From IMG/VR virus record IMGVR_UViG_2671180415_000005: a stretch of DNA of 40,193 bases. The stretch is one strand, 5' to 3'. The notes below the pieces were generated by a model. The model worked only from the letters and a program-made list of their open reading frames with translations, was not told the origin of the DNA and did not search any database. Origin of the DNA: a virus. Lineage: Duplodnaviria > Heunggongvirae > Uroviricota > Caudoviricetes. This document shows positions 1 through 26,778 of the stretch, one piece after another. Each line of letters opens with the position of its first letter. Within the stretch, counting starts at the first letter, position 1. A program made the position numbers and the translations under genes.

Positions 1-61
1 GAACCGTTCTGACAGCTTCGGCTTTGAACTCTTTAGAGTAACGTTGGGTTTTTCTGCTCAT
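1..61 (-). CDS. IS3-family transposase OrfA, N-terminal fragment (continues beyond window start)
   Basis: Hand translation of minus strand from ATG at 61..59: MSRKTQRYSKEFKAEAVRTV; HTH-type OrfA N-terminus. Confidence 0.65.
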   Translation of the reverse strand, partial: MSRKTQRYSKEFKAEAVRTV

Positions 62-125
62 TATTAGCTCCTTCTGATGCCATTCTATTTCAGGAAGGAG
101 TGTCCGTTAAACTCAGGCTACCTCA
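1..125 (-). mobile_element. IS3-family insertion sequence, partial (terminal inverted repeat and 5' part of orfA; IS600-like by memory), runs off window
   Basis: Minus strand of 59..61 starts an ORF MSRKTQRYSKEFKAEAVRTV... typical of IS3-family OrfA, with AAGGAG Shine-Dalgarno upstream; element end reads 5'-TGAGGTAGCCTGAG on minus strand (TG terminus at 124..125); torZ reading frame stops exactly at this junction. Confidence 0.7.
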
Positions 126-190
126 CTTCTCTTCTGCCCATGCGGGGAGCGGTGCTGCCGATGTCACCACCTGCGCTCCAGCGGCAATAC
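126..190 (-). pseudogene. torZ: torZ internal fragment (about codons 13-34, Tat signal region), cut by prophage on one side and IS on the other
   Basis: Minus-strand translation SIAAGAQVVTSAAPLPAWAEEK followed immediately by IS terminus; joins in frame with the torZ start fragment at 38813..38854 once the prophage is removed. Confidence 0.7.
186..190. repeat. 5-bp target-site duplication AATAC (copy at prophage right-end junction in window left)
   Basis: AATAC at 186..190 and 38813..38817; removing 191..38812 plus one copy restores MTLTRREFIKHSGIAAGAQVV... in frame. Confidence 0.6.
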
Positions 191-207
191 TATAGCGCGG
201 CGATTTT

Positions 208-273
208 TTTGATACCGATTTGCATTTCATTTGATACCGCTGAAAAACGCCGATACGCAACTTATTTGATACT
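208..273. repeat. Three TTTGATAC(C/T) transposase-binding-like repeats at the mom-proximal (right) prophage end
   Basis: TTTGATACC at 208..216 and 230..238 (22 bp apart), TTTGATACT at 265..273; inverted copies GGTATCAAA occur at the other end. Confidence 0.6.
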
Positions 274-318
274 AAATCGGCGCTTTTCTTTTGAGTTTTA
301 GAATGAGTTTTTAAGCGT

Positions 319-1056
319 TCATTCACTCTCTTTCAAACCAGTTTTAACTGTTTGTGGTTTTGGGTAAGGCTGGACTTTGAATAGCTTTGTGTTAAGGCGT
401 TTTCTGGCTCTCTTGTCCAGAAACCGGATGTAACGAAACTGACGGAATTTATGAACACTGGCTCTGTCGATATTAGCCCGCAGATGTTCACCTCGCTGTC
501 CTCCTCGTTTGATTGCATTCTTGCAAATCTCGTGATACCACTCGCCATCAAGTTCATAGAATGTTGTTTCATGACTGCCTACATAATCAAAATTGCTTGC
601 CTGGTACACGACACCAAGACAGCCACAACGCTCATCTGCAAACGACTGAACCCACTGCACCTGCGGATAAAGTTGTCTGATTAGTTTGAGCGCGTAACTG
701 ATTGCCCTTGATTCGGAGTTTCTCGGCATACAGTCATGCAGCCATAACCGGTTAAGCTCCATATATTCGCGGTTCTGCGTGCCAGTTACGACGCGTGCAC
801 CATTGTTTGGATTAAGGGCATAACCCCATTGCATTACGCCAACCAGCTCCCGTTCTGAAAATATGCCCAGATGAAGGTAGGAATTATTTACGAAACGATG
901 GCTGTAATGTTTATTGACGACGACCAGCCGGGCCAGCCAGCAACTTATTGTCTCAACCCGTAACTCACGGGAGCCATAACCGACGATATTGTCGTTATAG
1001 TGAATAAGTTCAGGCGTGCTGATGATACGGGATGTAACTTGCTTTCTGTTCCCCAC
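319..1056 (-). CDS. mom: Mom-like DNA modification protein (start uncertain; candidate GTG at 1056, ORF is open up to 1251)
   Basis: Last gene before the prophage end, directly downstream of and overlapping a Com-like zinc-finger gene, as in Mu; AAGGAA 8 nt upstream of GTG; no direct sequence motif verified. Confidence 0.6.
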
Positions 1057-1210
1057 GACAGGATTTCCTTGTGTATGTGGGGTGCTCTGTGGCGCTCTGA
1101 GATGTGATTTGATTGAGGGTTTTACAGCGCGGACATTTAACTTCCAGATAACTGAAGCTGGCTCGTGCCAGTAGCTTGTTACAATGTCGGCACCGTATGT
1201 TTCGATACAT
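1010..1210 (-). CDS. com: Com-like zinc-finger translational activator of mom
   Basis: [34 protein letters not shown]... has the C-x2-C ... C-x2-C Com pattern (IRC.HCNKLL ... KCPRCK); overlaps mom 5' end; alternative upstream start at 1255. Confidence 0.8.
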
Positions 1211-1254
1211 GGCCGCATAACCTCCTGCTTTGTTGTTGATATCTTTATCACTCA

Positions 1255-1350
1255 ATCGATCGACAAAAACGATCGATTTGATTTATTTAATTGATACAAC
1301 AAATAACACGAAATGTCATTAGCGAAAATTTATGAGTTTGATCACTAATT
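1255..1350 (-). promoter_or_regulatory. Candidate Pmom-like regulatory region with clustered Dam GATC sites
   Basis: AT-rich; GATC at 1258, 1271 and 1340 immediately upstream of com on the minus strand; Mu Pmom is regulated by a Dam-methylated GATC cluster. Confidence 0.4.
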
Positions 1351-1466
1351 TTAAACGGTGCTGTAACGCATAAGTGCTGAATGATTGTACATTTGAATAC
1401 CGCAAAGCAAACAAATCAACTAATTTATAGAAGTCAATTGGTTAATTGCCAGCGTAAGAGGCTGCT

Positions 1467-1760
1467 ATGGACAATCATGTAACGACGAGAAATCGAAAAA
1501 TGATTGAAAATGCGGAAATCTATAATGATTATTTTTCCGATTATTCAGATGCCTGCAAATACAGTTCGAGTGCGGGAGAGTTCATATGCTTCAACTTTTT
1601 TATTAAATCTTATGTTTTTCCTCCACAGCAAGAAGATGGAGGTGTGCCACCTCCTGAAATCACTTTGCACCGTATAGCCTCCGTCTCAATGATGGAGCAA
1701 CAGGCTAATGAGCTGTATAGCATTCTGGGAACGATTCTACAAAAGCGTGAATCGGACTAA
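1467..1760 (+). CDS. Hypothetical protein (AT-rich cargo ORF, opposite strand to neighbours)
   Basis: 97-aa ORF with TAAGAGG Shine-Dalgarno before ATG at 1467; no recognisable motif. Confidence 0.4.
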   Translation: MDNHVTTRNRKMIENAEIYNDYFSDYSDACKYSSSAGEFICFNFFIKSYVFPPQQEDGGVPPPEITLHRIASVSMMEQQANELYSILGTILQKRESD

Positions 1761-1927
1761 TGATACCGGTTCATTTGCCTGCCCGGATGGGGAAGCAGGA
1801 TTGACTGCTCCATAAGCAGCTATATTTCTGAATACGAAATACTATCCAGCGATTACATATGGCTGGATAGCGGCAAAGATGTTTTCATTAGTGTCAAACC
1901 GGCAGAGGACACCACCGGTTTGTATTG

Positions 1928-2182
1928 TTACATCATGGTACTGTCAGTTCCGGGCTGAGCCGGGTCTGGTTGCTCTGGCTGCGCGTCGGTTTTCGGCTCA
2001 TTATCAGCATCACTGGCCGCAACTGCTGGCCCAATAAGTTTTGCCAGCACTTCATCAACGTAAGTGTCGATTTGTGCCTCAAAATCCTTGCGGACCTGCG
2101 CTTTCAGCAACTTATTTACTTCACCGGAATACAGTGCCTGTTTTACCAGGTCTTCAGTGACGGTGCCTTTAATTTCTGGCAT
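1928..2182 (-). CDS. Hypothetical acidic protein (cargo)
   Basis: 84-aa ORF co-directional with and downstream of the esterase gene; stem-loop AACCGG/CCGGTT at 1897..1920 just after its stop. Confidence 0.45.
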   Translation of the reverse strand: MPEIKGTVTEDLVKQALYSGEVNKLLKAQVRKDFEAQIDTYVDEVLAKLIGPAVAASDADNEPKTDAQPEQPDPAQPGTDSTMM

Positions 2183-2217
2183 GTATATCCTCCTTATGCG
2201 GGAATAAAGCCCTGCAA

Positions 2218-2412
2218 TCAGGGCTGGGTCGGGTCTTTTGGGAGCGGAGTTACCTGCGCTGTTTTACTGAGTTTTTCAGCTGCTGCGTCCTCAATTTTGC
2301 GGCGAACATAATTTCTGATGGCCTTATAACCACCACTCACCAGATATAACGCACATACTGCCGTGCAGAAATACAATAAAATAAGCTGTAAAAATGTCAT
2401 TATCCCTCCCAA
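2218..2412 (-). CDS. Small single-pass membrane protein (cargo)
   Basis: 64 aa; N-terminal hydrophobic stretch FLQLILLYFCTAVCALYLV then charged tail; GGGA Shine-Dalgarno-like sequence upstream. Confidence 0.5.
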   Translation of the reverse strand: MGGIMTFLQLILLYFCTAVCALYLVSGGYKAIRNYVRRKIEDAAAEKLSKTAQVTPLPKDPTQP

Positions 2413-2496
2413 TTATTGACATGGTGTTGACACCGGTAATATCTGTTAGGTAAAAAGGTGCACTGCATTTTTTGCTTTGGATATAACGATCTTTTT

Positions 2497-2539
2497 GCCG
2501 CCGGTTTCTTGTTTTCCCTTACCGGCGGCATTTTTTTAT
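2497..2539 (+). terminator. Intrinsic-terminator-like hairpin (plus-strand sense) between esterase and small membrane protein genes
   Basis: GCCGCCGGT (2497..2505) / ACCGGCGGC (2521..2529) stem followed by ATTTTTTTAT; two TTGACA hexamers at 2416 and 2427 lie upstream on the same strand. Confidence 0.45.
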
Positions 2540-2544
2540 CCTGC

Positions 2545-4599
2545 TTACGCGTTATTCACTTCCACCACGATACTGTCAATCAGTACCGGGTAAGTCGCAT
2601 TTTTAGTGATATCGGTCACGCGCAACTTGTCTGCCGTAAACGTGCCGACCGGAGACTGCGACAGCATGAATGGTGTCCCGTCCTTACCATCAATGACCGG
2701 CGTCACCTCAATACTGTTGTTACCGGCAAAACGGAAGCCCAGCGTATGCCATTCGTTATTAAATGCGCCGAATGACCCCAGCTTCGTGTTCTGCGCCGTG
2801 TTTCCTTTGTGATACATCACGTTAAGGTCTGTGGCATCGCTCTGTACGTAGAACGATGCCAGCAGGTTATGACCGGCATTTCCTTCCAGAGTAACCCCTT
2901 GCGGCAGGGCAGAAACCGGCCAGTACAGCGCCAGTGCGTACTGATTAGCCGTAAGCGCGCCATCGAGTTTAAAACGACAACTGACAAGACCACCTTTACC
3001 CAGCAGGTCCGCACCATTACCAGCATCATGCTCAAGGTACCAGGGGGCTCTTCCTGTTTCCTTGGTCAGTTTCATTGCCTTACCCCCGCTGGCTCCGGCA
3101 TCATCCACGATTTGAGCCTTGCCACCTCCGGCAGCCCAACCCTGTGGTGTCAACCGTCCTTCAGACTCAGATGCCCGGTAAGCAAATAGCGTACTCATCG
3201 TCGTGGTGTCTGCGGGTGGCGTGGACGGTTTTGATGGTGTATCAGGTGACGGCTTCTCATCCGGTGGTGTCACGGTCTGCCCGCGCATCAGTTCAGCCGT
3301 GCGCCCTGCATGGAGCATAATAGCTGAGGCCAGACGGTCTGAAATGACGCCCCTGCGTGCCCATGAGCTGAAATGGCTGTCACGCTGTGTCGAAACAAAA
3401 CTGCCCTGGGTTCGGGATGCTGCACCGTAATACCCGACAGCCACAATATCCGGGTCTTCCGCCGGAGCATTCGTTGGCGTGCTCTGTCCATTCTCATCCG
3501 TCAGGAACGGTACAAAGAAAATTTTCTGTGCTTCCTTGCCTTTGTAGCCACCGTATACTGCCTCATATTTATCGGTGCCAGCGTTTTTCCAGTAATACGT
3601 GGTATCACCGCAAATCCACGGCACCGTGGTGGCATTTCCACTCACGCACTGCGCAGCAAGCGGAGCCAGGTCAGTTCTGAACTGCTGAACCATGGCCGTG
3701 AATAAACTATTATGCTGCTGGCTTCCTGAGGCAAGGTCTGCCTCTCCCTGCATCCAGACCACAGCCAGAAGTTTGTTTTTCGGGTTTTTCGCCAGCGCGA
3801 CTTTGGTGCGGCTTACCAGGTCCTGATACAGAGGTTTACCGGCCCCCCAGCGTGAAGAATCAGCGGAAGCACCGCTGGCCTCACTGAATGAGCCGTCGGC
3901 TCCAGTGGTGAATGCTGACCCGCCACGACAACAGGGCACCAGAAGTATCCCGGCATTCTGTGGGATATAGGGAAGCAGTTTTTTGGCAATATGCAACCCC
4001 TGACCGACAGTCCCGTACTGGCCTTTTGCCAGATCAGCTTTCGGGTGGTTTATCCCGCTCATATCCTGAACATCATGCAGGCAGTGGTCTGCCGGAATGA
4101 TGTCGTTGTATGTACACGACGTACCGTTGGGCGTTACCGTACTGCGGCGTGCCAGTTGCTTAATGCGTGGGTCCGGGCGGTCAAACGAATCCGGTAACGG
4201 CAGCCCCTCGCCGTAGGCCATGCCATTTGACTGACCCGCGAGAATGACAACAAAGTAATATTCCGGCTCTGAACTGCTGCCATTCGTGCTACCGGAAGGC
4301 CCGGCGTTATCCGGTGCATTCCAGTCGGAGGGCGTGAGCGTTCCGGCCACGTCAGATGTGATTGGAATGATGCCAGTCACGCCTGAACTGGTGATTTCTG
4401 CACTGGGATTACCGGATACCGGCATTACCCATAATGGCTCTTTCGTGCTGAAGCGGATCACGCAGTCTGCGAAGGTGATCCCCCCTTTATTACCCGAAGG
4501 GCGGAAAGGGCTTTCAATAAATGCCACCGTGCCACCGGCAACCTTGACTGAAAACTCTCCGGGCATGGCGGAGAGCATTTTCCACTTGGAGTCTGACAT
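2545..4599 (-). CDS. SGNH/SASA-family carbohydrate esterase (sialate-O-acetylesterase-like) with Pro/Thr-rich linker and C-terminal beta-rich putative carbohydrate-binding domain; cargo gene
   Basis: 684 aa; motifs ILAGQSNGMAYGEG (GQSN serine motif), VVWMQGEAD and RDSHF (Asp/His) in SASA-like order; linker PPDEKPSPDTPSKPSTPPADTT; no signal peptide; Mu has no gene at this position between gin and com. Confidence 0.7.
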   Translation of the reverse strand: MSDSKWKMLSAMPGEFSVKVAGGTVAFIESPFRPSGNKGGITFADCVIRFSTKEPLWVMPVSGNPSAEITSSGVTGIIPITSDVAGTLTPSDWNAPDNAGPSGSTNGSSSEPEYYFVVILAGQSNGMAYGEGLPLPDSFDRPDPRIKQLARRSTVTPNGTSCTYNDIIPADHCLHDVQDMSGINHPKADLAKGQYGTVGQGLHIAKKLLPYIPQNAGILLVPCCRGGSAFTTGADGSFSEASGASADSSRWGAGKPLYQDLVSRTKVALAKNPKNKLLAVVWMQGEADLASGSQQHNSLFTAMVQQFRTDLAPLAAQCVSGNATTVPWICGDTTYYWKNAGTDKYEAVYGGYKGKEAQKIFFVPFLTDENGQSTPTNAPAEDPDIVAVGYYGAASRTQGSFVSTQRDSHFSSWARRGVISDRLASAIMLHAGRTAELMRGQTVTPPDEKPSPDTPSKPSTPPADTTTMSTLFAYRASESEGRLTPQGWAAGGGKAQIVDDAGASGGKAMKLTKETGRAPWYLEHDAGNGADLLGKGGLVSCRFKLDGALTANQYALALYWPVSALPQGVTLEGNAGHNLLASFYVQSDATDLNVMYHKGNTAQNTKLGSFGAFNNEWHTLGFRFAGNNSIEVTPVIDGKDGTPFMLSQSPVGTFTADKLRVTDITKNATYPVLIDSIVVEVNNA

Positions 4600-4674
4600 C
4601 GTCTTTTCTGCCTGTTTCTGAATTAAACAGAGTCAGAATAGCGACCGCTGAAAAATATGTGTTTTGCGGAAATT

Positions 4675-4704
4675 CAAAAAAGCGTCACGGTACTTTTGGT
4701 GACG
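4675..4704 (-). terminator. Intrinsic terminator after gin (minus-strand sense)
   Basis: Stem CGTCAC (4683..4688) / GTGACG (4699..4704) followed on the minus-strand RNA by CUUUUUUG; overlaps gin stop codon. Confidence 0.5.
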
Positions 4705-5257
4705 GAGCTGGTGAGGCAGGAAAATAACGATAAAGGGTGGAAAGGCCAATATCAAATATCAGTGCGATTTGTTTACGGGACTCGCCATTAGCCAGCAAAC
4801 GGGCGATTTGCTCCCGCTCTTTCTCTGTCAGTTTCTGAGGTCTGCCGCCATGACGCCCCTGAGCACGGGCAGCAGCAAGACCCGCGCGTGTACGTTCAAT
4901 AATGAGTTCCCGCTCCATTTCCGCCAGCGCGCCCATTATATGGAAAAAGAAACGTCCCATGGGAGTGGATGTATCAATATTGTCCGTAATGCTGCGGAAG
5001 TTAACGCCGCGTTGCCGGAGTTCTTCTGTTAAAAGGACAAGGTGCTGCATACTGCGTCCAAGGCGATCCAGTTTCCAGACCAGCAGGGTATCCCCTGGCC
5101 GGAGTCGCTTTAATGCGCGTTTAAGTCCGGGACGCTCCCTTGTCTTACCGCTTATTCTGTCTTCGAAAAACAGCTCACATCCTGCACATTCCAGCGCATT
5201 TCTTTGTAGCGCCGTATTCTGGTCATTTGTTGACACCCTGATATACCCAATCAGCAT
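4685..5257 (-). CDS. gin: Gin-family serine DNA invertase
   Basis: MLIGYIRVSTNDQNTALQRNA...DTLLVWKLDRLGRSMQHL...MGRFFFHIMGALAEMERELIIERT is near-identical in pattern to Mu Gin/Hin/Pin/Cin; adjacent to invertible tail-fiber segment. Confidence 0.95.
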   Translation of the reverse strand: MLIGYIRVSTNDQNTALQRNALECAGCELFFEDRISGKTRERPGLKRALKRLRPGDTLLVWKLDRLGRSMQHLVLLTEELRQRGVNFRSITDNIDTSTPMGRFFFHIMGALAEMERELIIERTRAGLAAARAQGRHGGRPQKLTEKEREQIARLLANGESRKQIALIFDIGLSTLYRYFPASPAPSPKVP

Positions 5258-5322
5258 ACGATTTCCTTATTATAAAAAGCCGGAATTGTCGCATGAGGAA
5301 TAAAACAGAGTTAATCCTGGCT

Positions 5323-5348
5323 TTCCTGAAAACCTCGGTTTACGGGAA
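5323..5348. other. gix-like recombination site (gin-proximal)
   Basis: TTCCTGAAAACC-TC-GGTTTACGGGAA, an imperfect 12-2-12 palindrome closely resembling Mu gix/hix sites. Confidence 0.7.
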
Positions 5349-5687
5349 ACGGTAAACAGGGCGGCGAATGCTCTGCCATCGGACGGCACCGCCGTTGCCG
5401 CGAACAGGCTGGCAAATGCCCACACAATTAATGGTGTTCCCTTTGACGGGACGCAGGATATCACTATCTCATCAGGAACAGTAACCGCCATAAGACTGGG
5501 GGCGGTGACCGCACATATGCCCGGAACATGGGAAAGCTGGGATCTGAATCTGGGGGGCGGCAATGTTCTTACCGGAATTAAAGTACAGGATGTCGGTAAG
5601 AATACGGCAGATAACGTCGGCGGCGTGTATTACCGGCCGTTGCAGTATCTGTTAAATGGAGCATGGGTGACGGCTGCAAGTATATAA
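5337..5687 (+). CDS. Alternative tail-fiber C-terminal cassette (S'v-like), currently in non-expressed orientation
   Basis: Plus-strand frame encodes [26 protein letters not shown] (identical to tail-fiber S at the inverted repeat) then a divergent C-terminus ...[16 protein letters not shown]...LNGAWVTAASI; no start codon of its own at the 5' end. Confidence 0.65.
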   Translation, partial: GLRETVNRAANALPSDGTAVAANRLANAHTINGVPFDGTQDITISSGTVTAIRLGAVTAHMPGTWESWDLNLGGGNVLTGIKVQDVGKNTADNVGGVYYRPLQYLLNGAWVTAASI

Positions 5688-5696
5688 TGATATTCA

Positions 5697-5720
5697 GAAG
5701 GCCTTCCGGCCTTCTTTATT
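5697..5720. terminator. Hairpin with T-tract at the centre of the invertible segment (putative bidirectional terminator)
   Basis: GAAGGCC-TTCC-GGCCTTC followed by TTTATT; lies between convergent S'v cassette and tail-fiber assembly gene. Confidence 0.55.
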
Positions 5721-6240
5721 ACTGTGGCTGCTCAGGCCATTTAATGGCGTTAAATTCAGCTTCTGTTTTAATGGCGGGTAGTTCCATTTTCTTCACCTGA
5801 CTGATGTATGCCATCCATTGGGTAAGTGCTGCTCTGTCTTCATCGCTGATGGTGCCCAGTTGTAGCTCCGTTCTCCAGTCATTAATTTTTTCATATGCCT
5901 GATTAAGATATGACTGGCGCATTGCTTCCAGTTTTCTTGCGTAGTTAACCGGAATACGGGAGATTATGCCATTATCAAACTTCCAGTTTCCTGAAATATC
6001 CGTGCCTTCAGGGAGTTCATCGACCTCAACCACAGAAAACCCCGCAGGATACAGCGCCGAGGCGTCCTGTGATATTGAGCAGATAACGCCGCTGTCAGGT
6101 GTTATGCAAAGTTTATATTTTTTGGTGAATAATGGCAGGGATTCGTAGAAATCCTTACCATCTTCACTCTGGAAATACTGAACATTATTACCATATGGCA
6201 TATTTTCAGGATAATAACGGGTTATATTTTTTAGTTCCAT
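5719..6240 (-). CDS. Tail fiber assembly protein (U-like chaperone)
   Basis: 173 aa immediately downstream of tail fiber gene inside invertible segment; Mu U position; typical Tfa size. Confidence 0.75.
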   Translation of the reverse strand: MELKNITRYYPENMPYGNNVQYFQSEDGKDFYESLPLFTKKYKLCITPDSGVICSISQDASALYPAGFSVVEVDELPEGTDISGNWKFDNGIISRIPVNYARKLEAMRQSYLNQAYEKINDWRTELQLGTISDEDRAALTQWMAYISQVKKMELPAIKTEAEFNAIKWPEQPQ

Positions 6241-6291
6241 AAAATCCTCCTGGAAATAAATCTGTTTTAAAATATATTATTTACTGACTAT

Positions 6292-7182
6292 TTATAACTG
6301 AGATACCGTAATCCATGTACCTCCGACTAATTTTTGCAGGGGTCTGAATGCTATAAAATCGTTTGAAGCATCAACTTTACTGTCAATCTGCAGGCCTGCC
6401 ATAACATTACCGTACGCAGAGTAATATGCCCCACCGTACATTACCTGCCTGTTCTCTGCTCCCAGCCTGATATCCTGGATATATCGGGAATCCGCATCCT
6501 GCTGTGTTATACCAGAAGTGATGTTTATGTCCTGCGTCCCGTCAAAGGGAACCCCATTAATATTTCTTGGGGTGGCGAGTCTATTCGCGGCAACGGCGGT
6601 GCCGTCCGATGGCAGAGCATTCGCCGCCCTGTTTACCGTTTCCCGTAAACCGACGTTATCGATAAAAGCCCCTTTATCCGGAATGTCTGCGCCGTTCTGC
6701 TCCCTGCGCAGGTAACGGTTATCACCTTCGCTTTTGCTGTAAACATCCAGATTATTACGGGCGGTTCCCTTATTCTCCAGGTCGGCGAGATTCTGATCCT
6801 TCGCCAGGGCATTAACGTCAGCGGGACCAAGACTGTTTTTTGTGGCAAGCGTCCCCAGACCAAGATAACCACGGGCCAGACGCTGGGCCTCCGCACCGGC
6901 ATCAGCAATTTCTTTCAGGTTATTTTTCCGGGAAAAGGCATTCGCAGCGATAATGGCTTTAATGGACAGCGTAAGCTGGTTTAACTGCGCCTTATCCGGC
7001 TGAATACTGGCTTCAGCCAGAATATTCAGCAGTTCGGCCTGGAGAATATTCAGCCAGTCCTGACCAATCCAGCTGATACCTTTTTGTCCGTCACCTTCGG
7101 TAAACCAGGTGGTGGTATTACTCTGCGCCGGTGCCAGCGCAGGCATATTCGCCACGCCGGAATTATTATCAACATGAAACAT
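6292..7182 (-). CDS. Tail fiber protein (S-like; constant N-terminal part outside, variable C-terminal part inside invertible segment)
   Basis: 296 aa; spans gix site at 6640..6665; C-terminal region paralogous to S'v cassette. Confidence 0.8.
6640..6665. other. gix-like recombination site (tail-fiber-proximal)
   Basis: TTCCCGTAAACC-GA-CGTTATCGATAA, same architecture as the site at 5323..5348 in inverted orientation. Confidence 0.7.
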
Positions 7183-7742
7183 TAAATAGTCTCCTCTTCA
7201 TGGCTGTTTGCATAAACGTAAATAAACGTCTGCCATGCAGGCTTATAACGGTTCAGAATACATTCCAGCGCACCGCCTTCATAAATACGCAGCGGCGTGA
7301 GAATATCATCCAGCACATTCATATTCCGGTAGCCGGTTTCACTGTTAATCGTGACAATACTGACCCACTGCGAATCCGGTGAGGGCTGAATGTCAATCTG
7401 ATAACCAAACTCCGCCGCAAACCGGATATAAAATTCACGGTTCAGCGAGGGCTTCATCCGGTATTTATTTCCGGCATAACGCTGTCGCTCCGTGAGGGTG
7501 GCTCCGGCCATATCACACTCGGGAAGCCCGAGATAACGCTCCCAGTCTTCCAGCAGCAGGCGCGACGTGTCAGGGAAACGCTCGGCAAGCAGCTGTTTAC
7601 CCGTCCAGGATACACGCGCTGTCGAATGACTGAGGCCCAGACATAATGATGCCAGTACGGATGACGGACGCTTGTCCCATGCCAGCCCGTCAGGCAGTAA
7701 CTGCAACAGGGCGCGCTGATGCGGGGTCAGGGTTACAGCCAT
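7182..7742 (-). CDS. Tail/baseplate protein (Mu gp48 / YmfQ-like)
   Basis: 186 aa between baseplate J-like gene and tail fiber, Mu gp48 position; stop/start overlap with S. Confidence 0.6.
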
Positions 7743-8815
7743 GTGATTTCTCCTACCGTCAGCAGCTCACTGTCTCCCGCCTGAACTGACGTCAGCGGAC
7801 TGCGCACTTCAAAATCCTCCAGATTTTTCACCCCTGCCACCGCCCGCCAGAAAGACGACGGCAGAACCAGACCGCCGGGCCGGGATTCGTTATACAACAG
7901 GTCGGTCAGCGCCTGTTTTACGGCCGCCTGATTCTCCGGTGTTTTCGGGATGATCCTGATGCTGAAGGGCACCGGCTTATTGGTCAGTTTAAACACGGTC
8001 ACCGTCGGCCCCAGAGGCTGTCCGACAGGCTGGCCGGTCGCCGGATCATCATGACTGCGGATATAATCCGCCACCCGCTGAACATCACCGTCACCGGGGA
8101 AAATATCCGGGTTATTATCCTGAACAAACGTTACCCCCACGCTGCCCGCCTGCGGCCATTCCGGGCGGCACCATGCCCGCGTCACGCCCGGCACTTCACG
8201 CGCCCAGCGTTCAAAATCATACTGCGTGCCGCCGGACGGTGGATTCTGCACCCGGAAAACCAGACGGGAAAGCAGCTCCGGCACGGTTTCCACATCCGCA
8301 CCACCGGTGATCCCCGTTCCGGTCACCGTGGCCGTCTGGTTGATCCCCGCCTGCGGTGTGATAAATGTCAGTTTTGTCCCTGCCGGGGCATTCCCCGCAC
8401 GACCGGCACTTTCGGCTTCCACACTGACATTCAGCGTACCGGCCTTACCGGTCAGGGAGGTGGTGATACGGTAAACCACGCCATCACTTCGCTGGAGAAG
8501 CACACCTTCCTTGATCCCCGCATCCGTGGTCAGCATCAGCTGAACCGGCCCGTCCCCCCGAGAGGCAGGCTTACGCATGACGCCCCAGAATGCACAGTGT
8601 TTCAGCAGTTCGGCTTCATCGGCTTCGGTCGGGATGATCTGACGCGCAATCCAGGCCAGATGCTCATGCTCCTGAGCAGATAACCCTGCCTGAGCGTAAG
8701 CAATGGCATTCAGGGTGGTTTCATTCACACCCGGCTGCGAGCCGGGCAGGCGCTGGCTGATATCCTGCTGTGTCTGCGTGATTAACTGTGCCAGCGGTAA
8801 AGGCTGATAAGGCAT
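7733..8815 (-). CDS. Baseplate J-like protein (Mu gp47 / W-like)
   Basis: 360 aa, position and size as Mu gp47; translationally coupled neighbours. Confidence 0.7.
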   Translation of the reverse strand: MPYQPLPLAQLITQTQQDISQRLPGSQPGVNETTLNAIAYAQAGLSAQEHEHLAWIARQIIPTEADEAELLKHCAFWGVMRKPASRGDGPVQLMLTTDAGIKEGVLLQRSDGVVYRITTSLTGKAGTLNVSVEAESAGRAGNAPAGTKLTFITPQAGINQTATVTGTGITGGADVETVPELLSRLVFRVQNPPSGGTQYDFERWAREVPGVTRAWCRPEWPQAGSVGVTFVQDNNPDIFPGDGDVQRVADYIRSHDDPATGQPVGQPLGPTVTVFKLTNKPVPFSIRIIPKTPENQAAVKQALTDLLYNESRPGGLVLPSSFWRAVAGVKNLEDFEVRSPLTSVQAGDSELLTVGEITWL

Positions 8816-9252
8816 TACTCCCCCTTAAGATCAGCATAAAAAATCATGGGCCTCACTGAACCATCAGGCAGGGTTATGCGCACCGAAAGCGCCAGCCGCG
8901 CGTGTCCCACACGTTCTGCATGACAGACCACGGATGACGCCACGCCATCCTGACTGAGCCAGCCCAGCGCCTCATCCGCGTAAGCACGGGCACGGCTTAT
9001 CACCGAGGCCAGCGTTTTTTCCCGGCTGAGAAGCCACAGACGGGAGCCAATGGGGCGCGGGCGAAAACTGTCTCCCCACCATCCCCGGCGGTCGCGCGTA
9101 CCGTCAGGGATTTCATCCGATGCCAGCGCCCGGCGGTCAGTAAACAGCGAAATCAGAACGGCCGTCAGCAGACTGTCATCCGTCAGCAAGTCGGCACCGT
9201 TCAGTTGCAGCGAACCGCACCCCTGATCCCATACAATTGCAATATCAGCCAT
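8815..9252 (-). CDS. Baseplate protein (Mu gp46-like); start taken at internal Met
   Basis: ORF frame open to 9396 but internal MADIAIVWD start at 9252 overlaps upstream gene end by 8 bp, typical coupling. Confidence 0.6.
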   Translation of the reverse strand: MADIAIVWDQGCGSLQLNGADLLTDDSLLTAVLISLFTDRRALASDEIPDGTRDRRGWWGDSFRPRPIGSRLWLLSREKTLASVISRARAYADEALGWLSQDGVASSVVCHAERVGHARLALSVRITLPDGSVRPMIFYADLKGE

Positions 9253-9859
9253 TCTCCGGCGCTCCTGTCTTACTGCCTTTGCCGTTATCCTGATGCACAT
9301 GGCCGGAATAGGTGATCCCGGCAATAACGGCATCAGACATCGTGAACAGCCCGTCTGATTTACCTGTACCATCAAGCACGAAATTACCCTTAACATGCAG
9401 GTTTTTATCCACCGTCACATTGCCCGTAAAGGTGGCCTCCGGCGTATCCACCCGCATCCCCTCATCGGCGTAAATCTCCAGCATTTTGCATGTCACAATA
9501 ATGCGACCATCCTTTGTTAACCGTATCCGGTGCCCCTCATGGTGATACACCCCCGTATCTCCGGCTGTGAGTCCGGTCGGGCGGCTGCGCCGGTCTTCCA
9601 CCACAAGCACCACAGTCTGATCCCGCTGTCCGCCCAGACAGGCAAAAAAGGTTTCCGCACCCGGCAGGGGAACGCTGATCTGCCCGTACTGCTGGGGACG
9701 CTCCACATCATCAAAGGTTTCGCCGTCCATGCCGGTGAGCTGCACATTCTGCATTTTCAGTTCGTCATGTGTGCCGGTCAGAACGCCCCGGCCAAACAAC
9801 AGGCGAATACCGCGCGTTACCGGGGCAATCAGGCGGCTGAACACTTCATCATTCATCAA
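9245..9859 (-). CDS. Baseplate assembly / spike protein (Mu gp45-like, gpV-like)
   Basis: 204 aa, synteny between P-like and gp46-like genes. Confidence 0.65.
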   Translation of the reverse strand: MMNDEVFSRLIAPVTRGIRLLFGRGVLTGTHDELKMQNVQLTGMDGETFDDVERPQQYGQISVPLPGAETFFACLGGQRDQTVVLVVEDRRSRPTGLTAGDTGVYHHEGHRIRLTKDGRIIVTCKMLEIYADEGMRVDTPEATFTGNVTVDKNLHVKGNFVLDGTGKSDGLFTMSDAVIAGITYSGHVHQDNGKGSKTGAPENG

Positions 9860-10973
9860 AGCTGATCCCCTGTTTTTTCATCTGCTGGCGAATAAAGGCA
9901 TCAACATCGTCACCGGAACCACCCCGGCCCTTACTGTCCGGCTCTGCCGGAACGATAAAGCCGTCACGCGGTGCCAGTACCAGCCGGGTGACTTCCCCGT
10001 TATGTTCATCAAGTAAAAACTCCACCTGACAGACCAGCAGTTCAGTCTGTTCTATACCGAAACGCAGGGCTGAAACACCGGTCAGCAGATTGACATCCCA
10101 TAACCGGCCATCATCCCGGAACCAGCCACGCACGGTGGCAGAAAACCGTTCTGAACGGGCAATCGCACGGCGCATTTCACGCAGGGCACGCTGCCGTGCA
10201 CCGGTGGTGTCTGTCTGTTGATCGGCGAGGATGATTTTCGACCGGTAGCGGCCGATCTGCTCATCACTGATGACGCCCACAGGTGCTGCCAGACGGGCGG
10301 CGGATTCGCTGTCTCCCCGTTTGCCACCACCGCGCCCGTGTCCCCGGACACGGTATTCGCTGTATCGTCCTCGCCAGTCCGTGTTGTAATCGGCATCAAG
10401 CAGGTTATCTCCCAGCACCAGTCTGTCCGTCTGCTGGCTTCCTGCCTGGGTGAACACCAGATCGCCGTCAGCATTACTGGTCACCAGCACCCCGCGATGC
10501 CGGGCAGCACGGGTCAGCGCATCCGCCACGGTTTCTGAGTTTTCCAGCGTAAAAGAGCTGAAGGGGCGTGCAGCCGTGTCGTCGTTAACCTGCCAGCGCA
10601 CGGCTATCCCGAAGGGCGCACATAAATCTGCGGCAATCTGTGCCAGCGTCCGGTTGCGCCACTGGCTGCCGGGATGGATGGCGGCACAGTCCACCAGGTC
10701 GCCGGTTTTATCCCGACCGCTGATGCTGATCTGATGACGGGTTGCACTGATCCGCTGACTGACCTGATCCAGCCAGCCACTGATGACCGTCTGCCCGTTA
10801 ATTCTGAGCGTCAGGGACTGACCGGTTCGCAGGGCTGAGGGGATGCGCTCACCGGGCAGCATCAGCCCCAGTTCAAACGACCCGGCCAGATGCTCCAGCG
10901 AGCGACGGACGCTGACCGTCAGCCAGCCGGAAAAAATACTGCCACCGATATACAGTTCAATCCTGCTGCTCAC
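9849..10973 (-). CDS. Tail protein P-like (Mu gp44 / late control D family)
   Basis: 374 aa, synteny after N-like gene. Confidence 0.65.
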   Translation of the reverse strand: MSSRIELYIGGSIFSGWLTVSVRRSLEHLAGSFELGLMLPGERIPSALRTGQSLTLRINGQTVISGWLDQVSQRISATRHQISISGRDKTGDLVDCAAIHPGSQWRNRTLAQIAADLCAPFGIAVRWQVNDDTAARPFSSFTLENSETVADALTRAARHRGVLVTSNADGDLVFTQAGSQQTDRLVLGDNLLDADYNTDWRGRYSEYRVRGHGRGGGKRGDSESAARLAAPVGVISDEQIGRYRSKIILADQQTDTTGARQRALREMRRAIARSERFSATVRGWFRDDGRLWDVNLLTGVSALRFGIEQTELLVCQVEFLLDEHNGEVTRLVLAPRDGFIVPAEPDSKGRGGSGDDVDAFIRQQMKKQGISFDE

Positions 10974-12315
10974 TGATCACCTCCACGCTGCGGCCACCCG
11001 GAACAAAAACCGGATCGGGGATATTGTTTCTGCGGACAAAATACTGCCAGCGACTGCTGTTGCCGGTGGCACGGTACAGCGTGACCAGTGCCGGTTCGGT
11101 GGTGCGAACCATGACCTGAAAAGCACCGGGAAGATGCACGCTCCGTGTGGTTAAATCTTCTGTCAGCGCAAGCCCTGCATCACGTAATGCAAGGGCAGTC
11201 CCGGTATAGCCCTGTGCGGACAGATCCAGCACCTGTTGTTCCATGGCATCGCTCAAATCCCGGTTGATACGCTGCACATCAGCAGAACTTTCCAGCCAGG
11301 CCAGTCCGCCCGAACGGTCAGTATCCTGAACGTGCGTCGTATTCTGCCGGATGACCTGATCCAGCAGTTTTCCGAGCGTCTGTGCCTGCGACACCAGGGT
11401 TGCACTCTGCATCACGCTCCGCAGCAGACGGATATTTTTCTGTGCCGCAGGCGTCAGGCCAATCAGGCGCTGTGGATCATCCTGTTCGCTGAGGGTGTAA
11501 CGCAGGGAGGAAAGTGTGCGGTACAGCTGCGGCATGGCCTGCTCTGCCATGCTGTCACGGTTTGTGGTCAGGCTGCCGGACGGCGTTCCGGCTTTTCCGG
11601 TCAGAGACAGGGAAGGATCGCCGGGCAGCCCGGTCAGCACGGCAAACATTCCGGCCAGCGATTCAGCCATGCGACGGGGCGCATTAATCAGGGCGGCGGC
11701 ATTGCCTTTCAGGGCAGTAAAACTGGCCGTAAAGGCACTGATATCCTGCACAATCCCCATCCCCGAAACGGCATTCTCCAGTGCATCAATCTTATCGCTG
11801 ATGGTGTCGGTCATGGCCTGTACATCATGCAGACCGTCTGAAATCACCGTCCAGCCGTCTGAAAGCGTGTTAAACAGCTGATTCATTGCTGAGCCGCTTT
11901 TCTGCTCCAGCGCAGCTGCCGTATCTTCTGCCACCGCAGGGGCGGTATCGTCACTGGCGGGGATCACGTTGATCGTGAACTCAACCGTTCCCTGCTCGCT
12001 GGCGTTATAACGGCTTTCAAAGCTGTTTATCAGCACGTTTAACGTGCCGTAATCCGGGTGCATCAGTTCACCGGCACCGGGTGCACGCAGCGCATCACGC
12101 AGGCGGCTTCGCTGTGTCTGAAGATCGTCTCCGGTCACCAGAACCGTGAATGTGAACTCCGGGAGTTTTGGCCCCAGATCATCCGCACCGCCGCTTTCAC
12201 GCAGTGGGTATTCACGGCGCACAATGTTACGTCCGCCCCGTTCCCGCTGCTCCTGATAAACCAGGAACGGTACGCCACGAAAGGAGCCACGCCCCGGCGT
12301 GTCAGTAGAGGCCAT
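10957..12315 (-). CDS. DNA circularisation protein N-like (Mu gp43)
   Basis: 452 aa directly downstream of tape measure gene, Mu N position. Confidence 0.65.
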   Translation of the reverse strand: MASTDTPGRGSFRGVPFLVYQEQRERGGRNIVRREYPLRESGGADDLGPKLPEFTFTVLVTGDDLQTQRSRLRDALRAPGAGELMHPDYGTLNVLINSFESRYNASEQGTVEFTINVIPASDDTAPAVAEDTAAALEQKSGSAMNQLFNTLSDGWTVISDGLHDVQAMTDTISDKIDALENAVSGMGIVQDISAFTASFTALKGNAAALINAPRRMAESLAGMFAVLTGLPGDPSLSLTGKAGTPSGSLTTNRDSMAEQAMPQLYRTLSSLRYTLSEQDDPQRLIGLTPAAQKNIRLLRSVMQSATLVSQAQTLGKLLDQVIRQNTTHVQDTDRSGGLAWLESSADVQRINRDLSDAMEQQVLDLSAQGYTGTALALRDAGLALTEDLTTRSVHLPGAFQVMVRTTEPALVTLYRATGNSSRWQYFVRRNNIPDPVFVPGGRSVEVISEQQD

Positions 12316-14359
12316 AGTTCCCTCCGTTCCAGACGTTCACATCCAGGCCATGCTGTGCGGTATCATCCACATCAATACTGCGCGCCCGCCAGCCTTCAGG
12401 GGCAACAAGCTCCACCCGTGCGGCGGTTTTCGCGGTGGCCTGTCCGCCGTTTTCGTCACTGCCGCCACGCAGTTTCTGCCAGGCCTGCGTCAGCCAGCCC
12501 CCCAGATAATCACCGAGATAGCTGCCCACCGTGGAACCAATGGCAACCCCGACCGGACCGGCAGCCGCCCCCAGCGCGCCACCGGCGATACTTCCGGCAA
12601 GGGAACCCACGGCACCGGCTTTATCGGCTGCACTGGCGCTGCTGTCCAGCAGTACAGGAGCCGCCATGGCACCGGCCCACAGGGCACCACCACCCAGCCG
12701 ACCGGCACCACGGAACAGCCCGGCAAAACGCCCCAGCCCCATGCGGTTTCCGGCCGCCGTTAGCAGACCACCGGCACGGCTCATCATACGACCGAAGAAG
12801 CCCTGTTTACCGGCACTCTCCGCCAGTTGCTCACCGGCAGTCACGACGGTCGTGACACCCCGTCCACGTCCGGGGCCGCGTTTTTTACGGCCGCGCACGG
12901 TTTTGCCGTCACCGCTGACCACCACATCCCCGCCACCTGAGGCCAGGCCACCCGCAGGCCAATTGGTGACCAGCACGGGCTGAACGGCAGCCGGATTTAC
13001 CCCGGTAAGGAAATTCAGGAACCGGCCAGCGCGTCCGGGCTGCGTTCCCGGTACAGTGGTCTGCGGTTTGCGGAAGGGCGACGTCAGCACGGAGGTCATC
13101 GCCATGCCATAGCGTAAGGGGGTTGCGCCGAGACGTAATGCCCCCGTCCCCGCAAACCTGAGCACCTTCAGCGCACGGGAGGCGAGATACATATACATCA
13201 GGTACTTTGCGGCGGTCTGCGCACCCTGACCAATGCGATCCAGCGCATCGCCATAACCGGCGTCGCGCAGTGCCTGAAGCGTTTCCCTGACTTTCTGAAT
13301 GACCCGGTAAAAGCCGGTCGCAGCGTCTCTGGCATACTCAAATCCCTGATTCAGGGCTGAGGCCGTCTGTGTGGCCAGCTTATCCTGTAAGCCGCTTTTC
13401 TGTGCCGCATCAGCATAATCCAGAAAGCCTTTCAGGCTCTTTTTCAGGCTGTCAAACGGTCCCTTTGCCATCACCTCGCGGGCAAATCCGTCCCAGACAT
13501 CGCCCATCATGGACGTCATTCCCGTCCAGGAATTCATGGCGTTTTTCTGGGCACCTTTTGCCTGTTCGGCCATCACCTGAAATAACAGGCGAATGCTGTC
13601 CGGTCCCAGTTTTCCTTTCTCGCCTTTCTCACGGATGATCTTCTGGTTTACACCCAGCTTATCGGCCAGCAACTGGTAAACGTTAATCCCGTATCCGGTC
13701 AGAATATTGGCGTCCGCTGCCTGGATACTCTGGCGGGCAAACATCTGTTTGAGTTGCAGGGACGCACCCTGTGCATCTGACAGTGACCAGCCGTGATAGC
13801 CGCCCTGATCCTGAAGCATGGTAATAAAGCGACGGGCTTCCCTGTCACTCATACCGAACCCGCGACTGGAGGCGTATTCCTGCATAACCCCCGCCAGCCC
13901 CCAGGTGGTGTCTTTGGCGTTCTGTACCGCCCAGGCTTTCACTGCTTCCGTTTTTGCCGTATCGCCATGATTAATGGCGTTGAGACGCAGAATATAGTTC
14001 TCCATCTCTGCGGCCGGGCGGATAAAGGCTTTATTAAACCCGTAGACCGCAGCCCCTCCCGCCAGCATCCCGTAAAGGTTGCTTATCCGCCCGATGGTGC
14101 CGGTAATGCTGCCCTGAAGGCGGTCAAAATCTGACGTCACCGTGCGGATACTGCCACGAACACCGGCAAGCGTTCGCTGCATACGGGAGCCGACAAGTTC
14201 TGTCTCCTGACCGGCACGACGTGCTGCATTTCCAAGACCACCCAGCCCCGTCCTGCCGGAACGGGAGAATGCCCCCAGCTCCTGTGACCACTGGCGGGAT
14301 TTGGCAGAAATATTGCCGAGTAAATCGACAATCAGGGAGGCTTTCAGGTTTTTTGCCAT
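12302..14359 (-). CDS. Tail tape measure protein
   Basis: 685 aa, Gly/Ala-rich repetitive C-terminal half, located after tail tube and chaperone genes. Confidence 0.85.
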   Translation of the reverse strand: MAKNLKASLIVDLLGNISAKSRQWSQELGAFSRSGRTGLGGLGNAARRAGQETELVGSRMQRTLAGVRGSIRTVTSDFDRLQGSITGTIGRISNLYGMLAGGAAVYGFNKAFIRPAAEMENYILRLNAINHGDTAKTEAVKAWAVQNAKDTTWGLAGVMQEYASSRGFGMSDREARRFITMLQDQGGYHGWSLSDAQGASLQLKQMFARQSIQAADANILTGYGINVYQLLADKLGVNQKIIREKGEKGKLGPDSIRLLFQVMAEQAKGAQKNAMNSWTGMTSMMGDVWDGFAREVMAKGPFDSLKKSLKGFLDYADAAQKSGLQDKLATQTASALNQGFEYARDAATGFYRVIQKVRETLQALRDAGYGDALDRIGQGAQTAAKYLMYMYLASRALKVLRFAGTGALRLGATPLRYGMAMTSVLTSPFRKPQTTVPGTQPGRAGRFLNFLTGVNPAAVQPVLVTNWPAGGLASGGGDVVVSGDGKTVRGRKKRGPGRGRGVTTVVTAGEQLAESAGKQGFFGRMMSRAGGLLTAAGNRMGLGRFAGLFRGAGRLGGGALWAGAMAAPVLLDSSASAADKAGAVGSLAGSIAGGALGAAAGPVGVAIGSTVGSYLGDYLGGWLTQAWQKLRGGSDENGGQATAKTAARVELVAPEGWRARSIDVDDTAQHGLDVNVWNGGNYGLY

Positions 14360-14362
14360 GGG

Positions 14363-14557
14363 TTACTGCTTCGTTCTGAGAATTTTTTCGGTCTGTCGGC
14401 AGTGCCGGTAAAGCTGCGATAAGGGGAGGTTAAGCGCCCACTCCGGGCCGCTTTTTGTCACCATCCCCAGCACAATTGCGGCTTCTTCAATCTGATCCCG
14501 GCACTGCATCTGGTCGCCCCCGTTCAGCGACCAGCTTTCCGGCCATCGCGGAATCAA
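14363..14557 (-). CDS. Overlapping ORF downstream of tail assembly chaperone (possible frameshift extension or separate small gene)
   Basis: Overlaps 14487..14557 of chaperone ORF in a different frame, position analogous to G/GT-type chaperone pairs. Confidence 0.35.
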   Translation of the reverse strand: MIPRWPESWSLNGGDQMQCRDQIEEAAIVLGMVTKSGPEWALNLPLSQLYRHCRQTEKILRTKQ

Positions 14558-14963
14558 GCAGGCTTACTGCCGCCATCAGTCGGGAGAGATCGCGCTCGCT
14601 GAGCTGTCCTATCTGACGCGGAGACAATGGCCCCTCAATCTGGCCGACAGCGGCAATCTGACGGCGCAGCAGCGCAATGCCGCGCAGTGCCGGTGAGGCC
14701 ACAAGAACCGGACCGTTTCGGGTTTCCATAAGACGCTCGGCCTCGCTCTCCGCATCAATGCTGTCTTTTGCCGTCAGTTCGCGGAAGGTGACGCGGTATT
14801 CACGGGATTCCCCGAACGGCAGACCGTCGAGCAGATCCACATAGCCGTTCGCCAGTTGTTCAGCCAGCCCGGCGGTGCGGGGATCGCCGTCTTCAAGTGC
14901 ATCCCGGATAGCCTCCATCACGGCCTCGTCAGAAACCGCCGTTTTTTTCTTACGTGTGCTCAT
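14487..14963 (-). CDS. Tail assembly chaperone (Mu gp41-like)
   Basis: 158 aa between tail tube and tape measure genes. Confidence 0.6.
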   Translation of the reverse strand: MSTRKKKTAVSDEAVMEAIRDALEDGDPRTAGLAEQLANGYVDLLDGLPFGESREYRVTFRELTAKDSIDAESEAERLMETRNGPVLVASPALRGIALLRRQIAAVGQIEGPLSPRQIGQLSERDLSRLMAAVSLLDSAMAGKLVAERGRPDAVPGSD

Positions 14964-14977
14964 TACATTTTTCCTGA

Positions 14978-15343
14978 TTACTGGACACGGGTACTGGTGG
15001 CGCTGGCGAACTTCGCGGAGATATCACCACCACCGTCAAGCGAGGCCGGTTCACTGCTCCAGGCCTTCGTCATCATGTGGACTTCACCGGTATCGGCCAC
15101 GAACTCAATCGTGACCGCAGTCCAGGTGTTGATTTCATCGGCAGCCGGTGAACCTTCTCCGCCCGCCGGGAATTTACAGTCCAGCGTCGCCTCACGGGGT
15201 TTCTCGCGATAGCCGTAAACTTTCGCGCCTTTCACCACTTCACGCTCAAAGCCGGACGGGGAGAACGTGGCCCCCTCAAGGGTGTCGTACTCCTGCCCGT
15301 TCACACGGATGGTGGCCGTGCCCTGATACTGTTTTCCGCTCAT
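14978..15343 (-). CDS. Tail tube protein (Mu M-like)
   Basis: 121 aa directly after sheath gene. Confidence 0.75.
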   Translation of the reverse strand: MSGKQYQGTATIRVNGQEYDTLEGATFSPSGFEREVVKGAKVYGYREKPREATLDCKFPAGGEGSPAADEINTWTAVTIEFVADTGEVHMMTKAWSSEPASLDGGGDISAKFASATSTRVQ

Positions 15344-15351
15344 GCCTTACC

Positions 15352-16854: not shown

Positions 16855-17132
16855 CAGGACGTCCCCTTATCTGATGCTGCGGTTTTTTCAGCCACCGCCG
16901 CAGTTTTTTCTGCTACCGCTCCCGCTGGTTTTGCCGCCGCGCCGGTATTAGCAGTTGTGGCAGCCGGGGCAGGCTCCGCCGTTTTATCCACCACAATGAC
17001 GTCGCCATCATTAAGACGGCGGCACCAGAACGGAGTGAAGGGTTTCTCTTCCCCGTCCTGAGAGAGCGGAGTCATCGTGTCGGGATCGCGGATCAGGCAT
17101 CCCGGCGCAGGTTTAATAAAAATGGTTGTCAT
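16854..17132 (-). CDS. Hypothetical virion protein (Mu gp38-like), Ala/Pro-rich C-terminus
   Basis: 92 aa, synteny. Confidence 0.5.
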   Translation of the reverse strand: MTTIFIKPAPGCLIRDPDTMTPLSQDGEEKPFTPFWCRRLNDGDVIVVDKTAEPAPAATTANTGAAAKPAGAVAEKTAAVAEKTAASDKGTS

Positions 17133-17135
17133 CTG

Positions 17136-17699: not shown

Positions 17700-18115
17700 A
17701 TAAAGCCCTTCTGGTTGCGCCCGAACACCGCCGCATCAGACTGCACCTGCGGTAAATCCCCGGATTCAGGGGCCGCACCGTCTGTATCCACGCCGACCGG
17801 CACGTTACCGTTCATGACATCTTTCAGCCAGGCCAGCGCCTCACGGTAACGGTCACGCGCCTGATCGGATGCCCGCTGATCGCACAGGTAATAAAAGGCA
17901 ATCGTGCAGCAATGCTGAACAAGGACCGCCGGAACCACCGCCAGCGGCAGCGTGTAACGGGAAGACAGATAGCTGTCGATAAGGGCAGACGCGTCCGTCA
18001 GTGCCCGGTTCAGCTTGCGCGTGTCCGGTTCATCCGAACGGGGCACGGCCAGTAATGGCCTGAGCAAATCCTCGCGGTAACGTGCCCGCATATCGGTTTC
18101 GGTGGCGTAATTCAT
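17696..18115 (-). CDS. Head completion protein (Mu gp36-like)
   Basis: 139 aa, synteny, overlapping stop/start. Confidence 0.5.
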   Translation of the reverse strand: MNYATETDMRARYREDLLRPLLAVPRSDEPDTRKLNRALTDASALIDSYLSSRYTLPLAVVPAVLVQHCCTIAFYYLCDQRASDQARDRYREALAWLKDVMNGNVPVGVDTDGAAPESGDLPQVQSDAAVFGRNQKGFI

Positions 18116-18471: not shown

Positions 18472-18514
18472 ATTTGCCCTCCGCAGGGGCCGGGCCGTAA
18501 GCCCGGCTCACCGT

Positions 18515-26184: not shown

Positions 26185-26194
26185 GATTCACCTC

Positions 26195-26776: not shown

Positions 26777-26778
26777 CG

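Follow-up and report, generated by a model that had tools for sequence, protein, structure and literature searches.

The torYZ operon of Shigella sonnei carries a torZ gene split by IS600 and by an Sp18-type Mu-like prophage

The window, meaning the whole 40,193-nucleotide stretch of DNA analysed here (IMG/VR record IMGVR_UViG_2671180415_000005), holds a complete transposable prophage together with torY, two pieces of torZ and one end of an insertion sequence. The features are as follows, with coordinates counted from the first letter of the window.

1..125, minus strand: left end of IS600 (IS3 family), cut by the window edge; its terminal inverted repeat starts at 125, TGAGGTAGCC...
123..125, minus strand: TGA stop made by the first three bases of IS600, ending the torZ frame after codon 34
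126..128, minus strand: AAG, torZ nt 100-102, one copy of the 3-bp target duplication of IS600; the other copy lies outside the window, past the IS
126..190, minus strand: torZ nt 38-102, from part of codon 13 through codon 34, carrying L19Q
187..190, minus strand: GTAT, direct repeat beside the right (mom) end of the prophage
191..38813, minus strand: complete Mu-like (Sp18-type) transposable prophage of 38,623 bp, termini TATA...TATA
319..1251, minus strand: com-mom region, one mechanical ORF over both genes (PF25680 Mom, 1.6e-77)
4685..5257, minus strand: Gin-type serine invertase (Resolvase and HTH_7)
5319..6670, no strand: invertible tail-fibre (G-like) segment, bounded by imperfect inverted repeats of ~140 bp
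34369..35442, minus strand: MuB-type AAA+ transposition protein (AAA_22 and PF09077), annotated as 310 aa in relatives
35516..37603, minus strand: MuA-type transposase, 695 aa (PF02316 and PF09299)
37606..37836, minus strand: Ner-like early regulator (HTH_35)
38022..38567, plus strand: gene in the repressor position, 181 aa, annotated as 'transcriptional regulator' in relatives
38814..38817, minus strand: GTAT, direct repeat beside the left end of the prophage
38814..38854, minus strand: torZ nt 1-41, with the start codon and the twin-arginine motif TRREFIK, placed by alignment to an intact locus (L001)
38879..39979, minus strand: torY, NapC/NirT family, 366 aa, intact (PF03264 at 2.3e-69; P48S relative to the E. 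coli alleles)

The middle piece of torZ, read from 190 to 126, is GTATTGCCGCTGGAGCGCAGGTGGTGACATCGGCAGCACCGCTCCCCGCATGGGCAGAAGAGAAG. It matches E. coli torZ over 65 nt with one substitution (CTG>CAG, L19Q), and the piece bearing the start codon matches in 41 of 41 nt. As both agree nearly perfectly with a named gene, chance is no consideration. The middle piece covers the Tat signal peptide from its h-region through its c-region and continues for three residues into the mature protein; it is the Tat-signal region that the initial annotation had recognised on this strand. The minus strand of 191..123 translates to SIAAGAQVVTSAAPLPAWAEEK and then stops. Its leading 'S' codon is chimeric, with the A supplied by the phage (position 191) and the GT by torZ, while the stop is the TGA at 125..123 that had been attributed to the terminus of the insertion sequence. 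At the far side of the prophage, 38854..38813 translates to MTLTRREFIKHSGI. The first 14 codons of torZ had been placed here, which is the right position; the boundary is one base off, as 38813, read as the end of codon 14, is the terminal base of the prophage and torZ proper spans 38854..38814. All of the elements first described are present, and their boundaries shift by one base only.

The motif TRREFIK and the signal-peptidase site between AWA and EEK are what we take to be the features of a Tat signal. Their positions put both breaks in or just after the Tat signal peptide. Alignment to the uninterrupted E. coli locus (L001), a comparison that the initial annotation had proposed, places the breaks after nt 41 and nt 102, 61 bp apart, in agreement with its claim of a double disruption within ~60 bp. 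The gene is the orthologue of torZ by its place in a cutC-torY-torZ-cmoB locus and by its N-terminal twin-arginine signal, and its frame is split at these two points instead of running uninterrupted.

In E. coli, torYZ is the third, weakly expressed periplasmic TMAO/N-oxide reductase. The cutC-torY-torZ-cmoB locus is carried by every E. coli genome searched and matches the torY side of the window at 99.8% identity. The torY gene is full length, with an N-terminal anchor and five CXXCH haem motifs (CLSCH, CADCH, CRSCH, CIDCH and CAGCH). It is separated from torZ by a 24-nt spacer, identical in length to that of E. coli; an intact torY directly before the torZ start was thus read correctly from the outset. 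The likeness to the E. coli torYZ operon (Gon et al. 2000, cited in PMC7759655), which occupies the same place between cutC and cmoB, extends to 99.8% identity for torY at the DNA level and ~99.8% for the torZ pieces. The difference is that torZ is here in three pieces, a structure from which no exported enzyme should be makeable.

The element at the left edge of the window was first described as the end of an IS3-family element, and this holds: it is the exact left end of IS600. The sequence from 125 down to 1 on the minus strand begins TGAGGTAGCCTGAGTTTAACGG..., and copies 100% identical to this 125-bp fragment occur in ~3,000 of the 5,426 complete E. coli genomes; PGAP labels several of these copies 'IS3-like element IS600 family transposase'. 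The ATG of orfA lies at 61..59, so that the window contains the first 20 orfA codons only. The minus strand of 1..61 translates to MSRKTQRYSKEFKAEAVRTV, which is the OrfA start that had been noticed in the fragment.

The remainder of the element was read in other genomes. CP180015 (L002) is a complete, hybrid-assembled chromosome of strain 590907, genotype 3.4.1, NCTC15124 (PMC12795559, Table S1). It shares a 10.3-kb stretch with the window, with 0 mismatches in 5,318 and 3,656 nt outside the invertible segment, which is flipped in CP180015 relative to the window. Seven further chromosome-scale assemblies (L013-L019), found by an exact TorY look-up, carry torY, a 34-codon torZ stub and IS600 at the same nucleotide. 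The full element at the torZ site measures 1,264 bp in CP180015 and in these seven chromosomes. It has imperfect terminal inverted repeats ending 5'-TG...CA-3', with only the left repeat lying within the window: IRL is TGAGGTAGCCTGAG...GCGGACAC and the reverse complement of IRR is TGAGGTGTACTGGC...GCGGACAC. The coding content in CP180015 is likewise that of IS600, with a 100-aa OrfA and a 272-aa OrfB, and a 385-aa OrfA-OrfB fusion product has HTH_Tnp_1 and rve domains, which fits an IS3-family element whose orfA (HTH) and orfB (DDE) overlap and are joined by frameshifting.

Extension to the left of the window, suggested at the outset as a check, gave the result predicted. In CP180015, the sequence right after IS600 is AAGGACGGTAAAATC..., with torZ resuming at nt 100, and the joint ...GAGAAG/IS600/AAGGACGG... 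is read both there and in the seven other chromosomes, AAG being present on both sides of the element in each, a duplication typical of the IS3 family. The torZ remainder in CP180015 is an open frame of 776 codons, 99.75% identical to E. coli without gaps, that runs to the normal stop beside cmoB/cmoA. The window itself ends inside IS600, and the resumption of torZ is thus seen in other assemblies of the lineage and not in the window contig.

The claim that a Mu-like prophage separates the torZ pieces is well founded, as Pfam matches to MuA, MuB, a Ner-type HTH, Mom, Gin and the Mu gpT head protein lie between them. The immunity and transposase end of the prophage is at 38813 and the com-mom end is at 191. 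The last 136 bp, window 326..191 on the minus strand, end in ...CGCCGCGCTATA. The homology of more than 10 independent E. coli insertions stops exactly at 191 and 38813, and the structural genes are equal in length to those of annotated intact relatives. The layout is Mu-like: genes for MuA and MuB lie beside a repressor/ner module, com-mom is at the right end, Gin accompanies an invertible tail-fibre segment, and copies occupy many unrelated sites with a short duplication. The com-mom region is called as Com (66 aa) and Mom (245 aa) in CP180015. The gene in the repressor position is transcribed toward the left end of the prophage, and a Pfam search with its 181-aa product returned no match.

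The G-like segment is bounded by inverted repeats at 5319-5458 and 6527-6670. It lies one way round in L002, L003, L004 and L008 and the other way in the window, L006 and L007. The presence of both orientations among otherwise identical S. sonnei assemblies indicates that Gin is expressed and active in the lysogen.

Two further elements of the prophage were noted. Between gin and com-mom, at 2545-4599 on the minus strand, lies the gene for a 684-aa protein with a SASA carbohydrate-esterase domain and DUF6645. It is outside the invertible segment, is conserved in all relatives examined and could be a receptor-modifying or tail-associated esterase. The second is a tRNA-like element at 21287-21366 on the plus strand, between the virion-morphogenesis and head-morphogenesis genes and antisense to the late genes. 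Under permissive filters only, its score against the Rfam tRNA model is 31 bits (gathering score 29), and it has good acceptor, D and T arms with an oversized anticodon region. It is called 'tRNA-OTHER' by PGAP in relatives and is conserved in L009, L010 and L024. Neither ARAGORN nor Rfam at its gathering threshold called an RNA gene in the window.

In type and gene order the prophage resembles Sp18 of E. coli O157:H7 Sakai (Asadulghani et al. 2009, PMC2669165), including an invertible host-range region with genes that differ from those of Mu. Mu-like prophages of O157 genomes match the mom end of the window at ~97.5% identity and are presumably Sp18 itself, whereas the sequence of the immunity end is ~90% identical. 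The copies closest to the window come from E. coli, both commensal and clinical, and from further S. sonnei genotypes, and in some of these copies MuA is identical. The phage collection held no close full-length relative of the prophage; the best match there was a Mu-like insert carried by two Stx phages, which aligned with 55% of the query at 90.8% identity.

With Mu and with SfMu of Shigella flexneri (PMC4406740), the prophage shares the transposable way of life, MuA and MuB, ner, gam, mor, com-mom, gin, an invertible segment and lysogeny at essentially random sites. A megablast search with the prophage gave no DNA-level match to any Mu or SfMu record. Because the proteins of SfMu are more than 90% Mu-like and SfMu gave no such match, identity with it was rejected. 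The prophage also departs from Mu in its termini, TA...TA in place of TG...CA, and in a flanking repeat of 4 bp in place of 5 bp. These departures lower the case that it is Mu, not the case that it works like Mu.

The 4-bp repeat is formed by torZ nt 38-41 (GTAT), present on both sides of the prophage, whose termini read TATAACCAGG.../...GCGCTATA, with TGTA(ACC) at the left end in relatives L011 and L024. Repeats of 4 bp were found in six of the six independent insertions for which both flanks could be read (the window with L009, L010, L011, L012 and L024), namely GTAT, GACG, CGCA, TACA, TAGA and GTAA. The five insertions other than that in torZ lie in bcsA, flgL, a D-cysteine desulfhydrase gene, the elyC/ydcF region and a lambdoid lysis gene. 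A 5-bp duplication, GTATT, was dropped as a candidate in the light of these five, in which the fifth base matches only if the terminal T of the phage is counted. It is conceivable, though on balance doubtful, that phages of the Sp18 type make a 4-bp staggered cut in the target and not the canonical 5-bp cut of Mu. If true, the two active sites of the transpososome would be spaced differently than in Mu. A shallow literature search for 4-bp duplications in Mu-like phages returned nothing relevant.

The host is Shigella sonnei. A chimeric 67-aa ORF, which leads from the phage end across the torZ stub and terminates at the TGA of IS600, was found on 69 contigs, all of them from S. sonnei sources. 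The 34-aa product of torZ truncated by IS600 was found on 853 contigs named Shigella sonnei or Shigella. The seven chromosomes with IS600 in torZ have the AAG duplication, L19Q and G35D, and at their phage site GTAT is present once, with no prophage. Among them are CP179971 (genotype 3.6.2) and GCA_965230885.1 (genotype 3.7.29.1.4). Among the genomes seen, the prophage is at torZ only in the 3.4.1 group, while IS600 is there across the lineage-3 genotypes examined. Neither of the composite joints, nor torZ::IS600, occurs in the 5,426 complete E. coli genomes. An exact-pattern scan of a species-representative genome collection, in which Shigella is presumably represented by an E. coli genome, was also negative for the torZ/IS600 joint.

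The 695-aa MuA of the prophage is indexed, in identical form, in 1,066 blocks of the collection. It was located at nine chromosomal sites (L025-L033), with nine different sequences outside TATAACCAGG..., as is expected of lysogeny by random transposition. Three of the nine are in S. sonnei reference chromosomes: L029 (CP180280, genotype 1), L030 (the torZ site, genotype 3.4.1) and L032 (CP176614, genotype 3.7.30.4.1). The prophage is therefore a circulating, active transposable phage that has lysogenised S. sonnei lineages repeatedly.

In three draft contigs (L003-L005), what follows the IS600 on the torZ side is unrelated to torZ: a truncated nadB-like gene accompanied by srmB and ung, the region of a sigA-like autotransporter, or phage tail genes in inverted orientation. 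They have no AAG on the far side, show 1-3 differences within the IS, and in one case the junction contains an N. It is possible that an IS600-mediated rearrangement moved the torZ remainder in some isolates. These contigs are probably repeat-collapse chimeras, which is the likelier explanation, and they were rejected as evidence for rearrangement.

Taken together, the S. sonnei torYZ operon has very probably been knocked out by two separate transpositions, the older by IS600 and the later by an Sp18-type Mu-like phage. The first event, an IS600 insertion behind nt 102 of torZ with duplication of AAG, would go back at least to the common ancestor of the lineage-3 genotypes examined. The terminal TGA of IS600 would stop translation after residue 34, so that the Tat signal and the start codon are severed from the catalytic body. 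In the second, the phage would have transposed in after torZ nt 41, duplicating GTAT, in a sub-lineage that includes genotype 3.4.1. It would thus have landed inside a signal-peptide stub that was already dead, and an insertion at such a point should be selectively neutral. The genomes with IS600 and an empty phage site are what put IS600 first and the phage later. The two hits had been called independent, and the separate target duplications and the seven chromosomes that carry only IS600 bear this out. The order is a matter of parsimony over a handful of genotyped genomes, all of lineage 3 at this locus.

As for function, the structure supports the initial claim that the operon is inactivated with torY intact and torZ broken, as no periplasmic molybdoenzyme would be expected from pieces divided in this way. 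The intact torY does not show continued usefulness, and its partner enzyme would be gone. Splitting of the gene has also left its mark on annotation. In the genomes free of the Mu-like phage (L013 8440-10821; L014-L016 and L018 ~8530-10822) the torZ remainder is called as a 'molybdopterin' protein of 763 or 793 aa, the latter beginning inside the right end of IS600, and the 34-aa stub is named 'Transcriptional initiation protein Tat' in UniProt. Both entries are artefacts of annotating a gene that is split.

With both inserts removed in silico (window 38814-38854 and 126-186 joined to the remainder from L002 or L019), torZ is an open frame of 809 codons with no stops. It differs from the nearest E. 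coli allele (ABWA45) by five substitutions, four of them nonsynonymous (L19Q, G35D, G42E and G713S) and one synonymous. Three of the four nonsynonymous changes fall within 25 codons of the two insertion sites. A frame that is still open and has changed so little suggests a young pseudogene, and the counts, though small, are consistent with relaxed constraint.

It is unlikely that the loss of torZ was itself selected as an antivirulence or pathoadaptive change. Metabolic functions have been lost convergently through insertion sequences across Shigella lineages (PMC7373316), and all the lineage-3 genotypes examined seem to be fixed for the IS600 allele, both of which speak for selection. On the other hand, nothing here shows convergence on torZ in other Shigella species. 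A review describes E. coli TorZ as an S-/N-oxide reductase of broad range whose physiological role is uncertain, and reports normal colonisation of the mouse gut by a torZ mutant (PMC7759655, citing Gon 2000 and Jones 2011). In addition, torY is intact and the rest of torZ is little decayed, as would be expected of a recent neutral hit fixed by drift. The loss fits neutral drift in a clonal pathogen laden with insertion sequences (PMC7373316, PMC12795559).

The reverse order, in which the prophage precedes IS600, is very unlikely, as is one compound event that brought in both, for example with IS600 carried beside the phage end. The elements are only 61 bp apart and the window alone cannot order them. 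Against this, the genomes with IS600 and a single GTAT are the majority, with seven chromosomes and 853 contigs as opposed to 69, and genotypes 3.6.2 and 3.7.29.1.4 are both represented among them. That each of them should have lost a Mu-type prophage precisely would be far less parsimonious. In this small sample, every genome with the phage junction also has the IS600 junction, while the state with IS600 alone is basal and widespread. A compound event is further opposed by the separate duplications, AAG and GTAT, and by the 65 bp of genuine torZ between the elements. An IS600 insertion followed by the phage is hence the order retained.

The close spacing raises the question of whether one element was drawn to the other. 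For the phage to land at random within 65 bp of one of ~230-350 IS copies on a 4.9-Mb chromosome has a chance of ~0.6-0.9%, by our own arithmetic on the counts in PMC7373316. A second copy of the phage, in CP176614 (L032), lies inside IS66 tnpB in an IS-rich patch, ~550 bp from an IS600. Targeting by the Mu-like phage or by IS600, for example to a DNA structure at the IS end or to a hotspot, is nevertheless highly improbable. The closeness was singled out in hindsight, and the insertions that survive are biased toward dead DNA, most of which is associated with IS copies in S. sonnei; PGAP calls ~660-710 pseudogene fragments in this species (PMC12795559). Seven of the nine sites with an identical MuA lie beside ordinary genes with no IS called nearby, the exceptions being the torZ site (L030) and L032, and a transposase is adjacent to only one of the 25 right-end matches listed in E. 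coli. At the sites examined, no evidence of targeting was seen. That the arrangement is an artefact, a contig assembled chimerically across repeats, can be dismissed with near certainty: the window does end in an IS and, past IS600, some draft contigs of this locus are plainly chimeras, but the same joints recur in the hybrid long-read chromosome CP180015 and in 69 contigs from many samples, and both have proper target duplications.

The initial annotation had suspected a lineage undergoing IS-mediated decay, and S. sonnei fits this description, being a textbook case of IS expansion and pseudogene accumulation (PMC7373316). Pseudogenisation in Shigella by IS1, IS2, IS4, IS600 and IS911 has been documented (Hawkey et al. 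2020, PMC7373316), and the present case resembles it in that IS600 breaks a metabolic gene of the E. coli backbone, with a 3-bp duplication, and the allele appears fixed in a clonal, human-adapted lineage. It differs in that a prophage then landed in the same torZ stub. Neither the literature search nor the supplements of Hawkey et al. 2020 (PMC7373316) yielded a statement on torZ or torYZ in Shigella.

The double break of torZ is ordinary gene decay, an event of an already known kind. It documents one more S. sonnei pseudogene made by IS600 and is of little importance beyond annotation. Within these limits, the locus illustrates nested decay cleanly, in an order that can be dated, and the prophage/torZ joint could serve as a lineage marker. 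In metabolic models of S. sonnei, the TorYZ route for TMAO and N-oxides would have to be switched off, despite torY being called intact. The only wider reach of the result lies in the 4-bp target repeats of a widespread family of Mu-like prophages.
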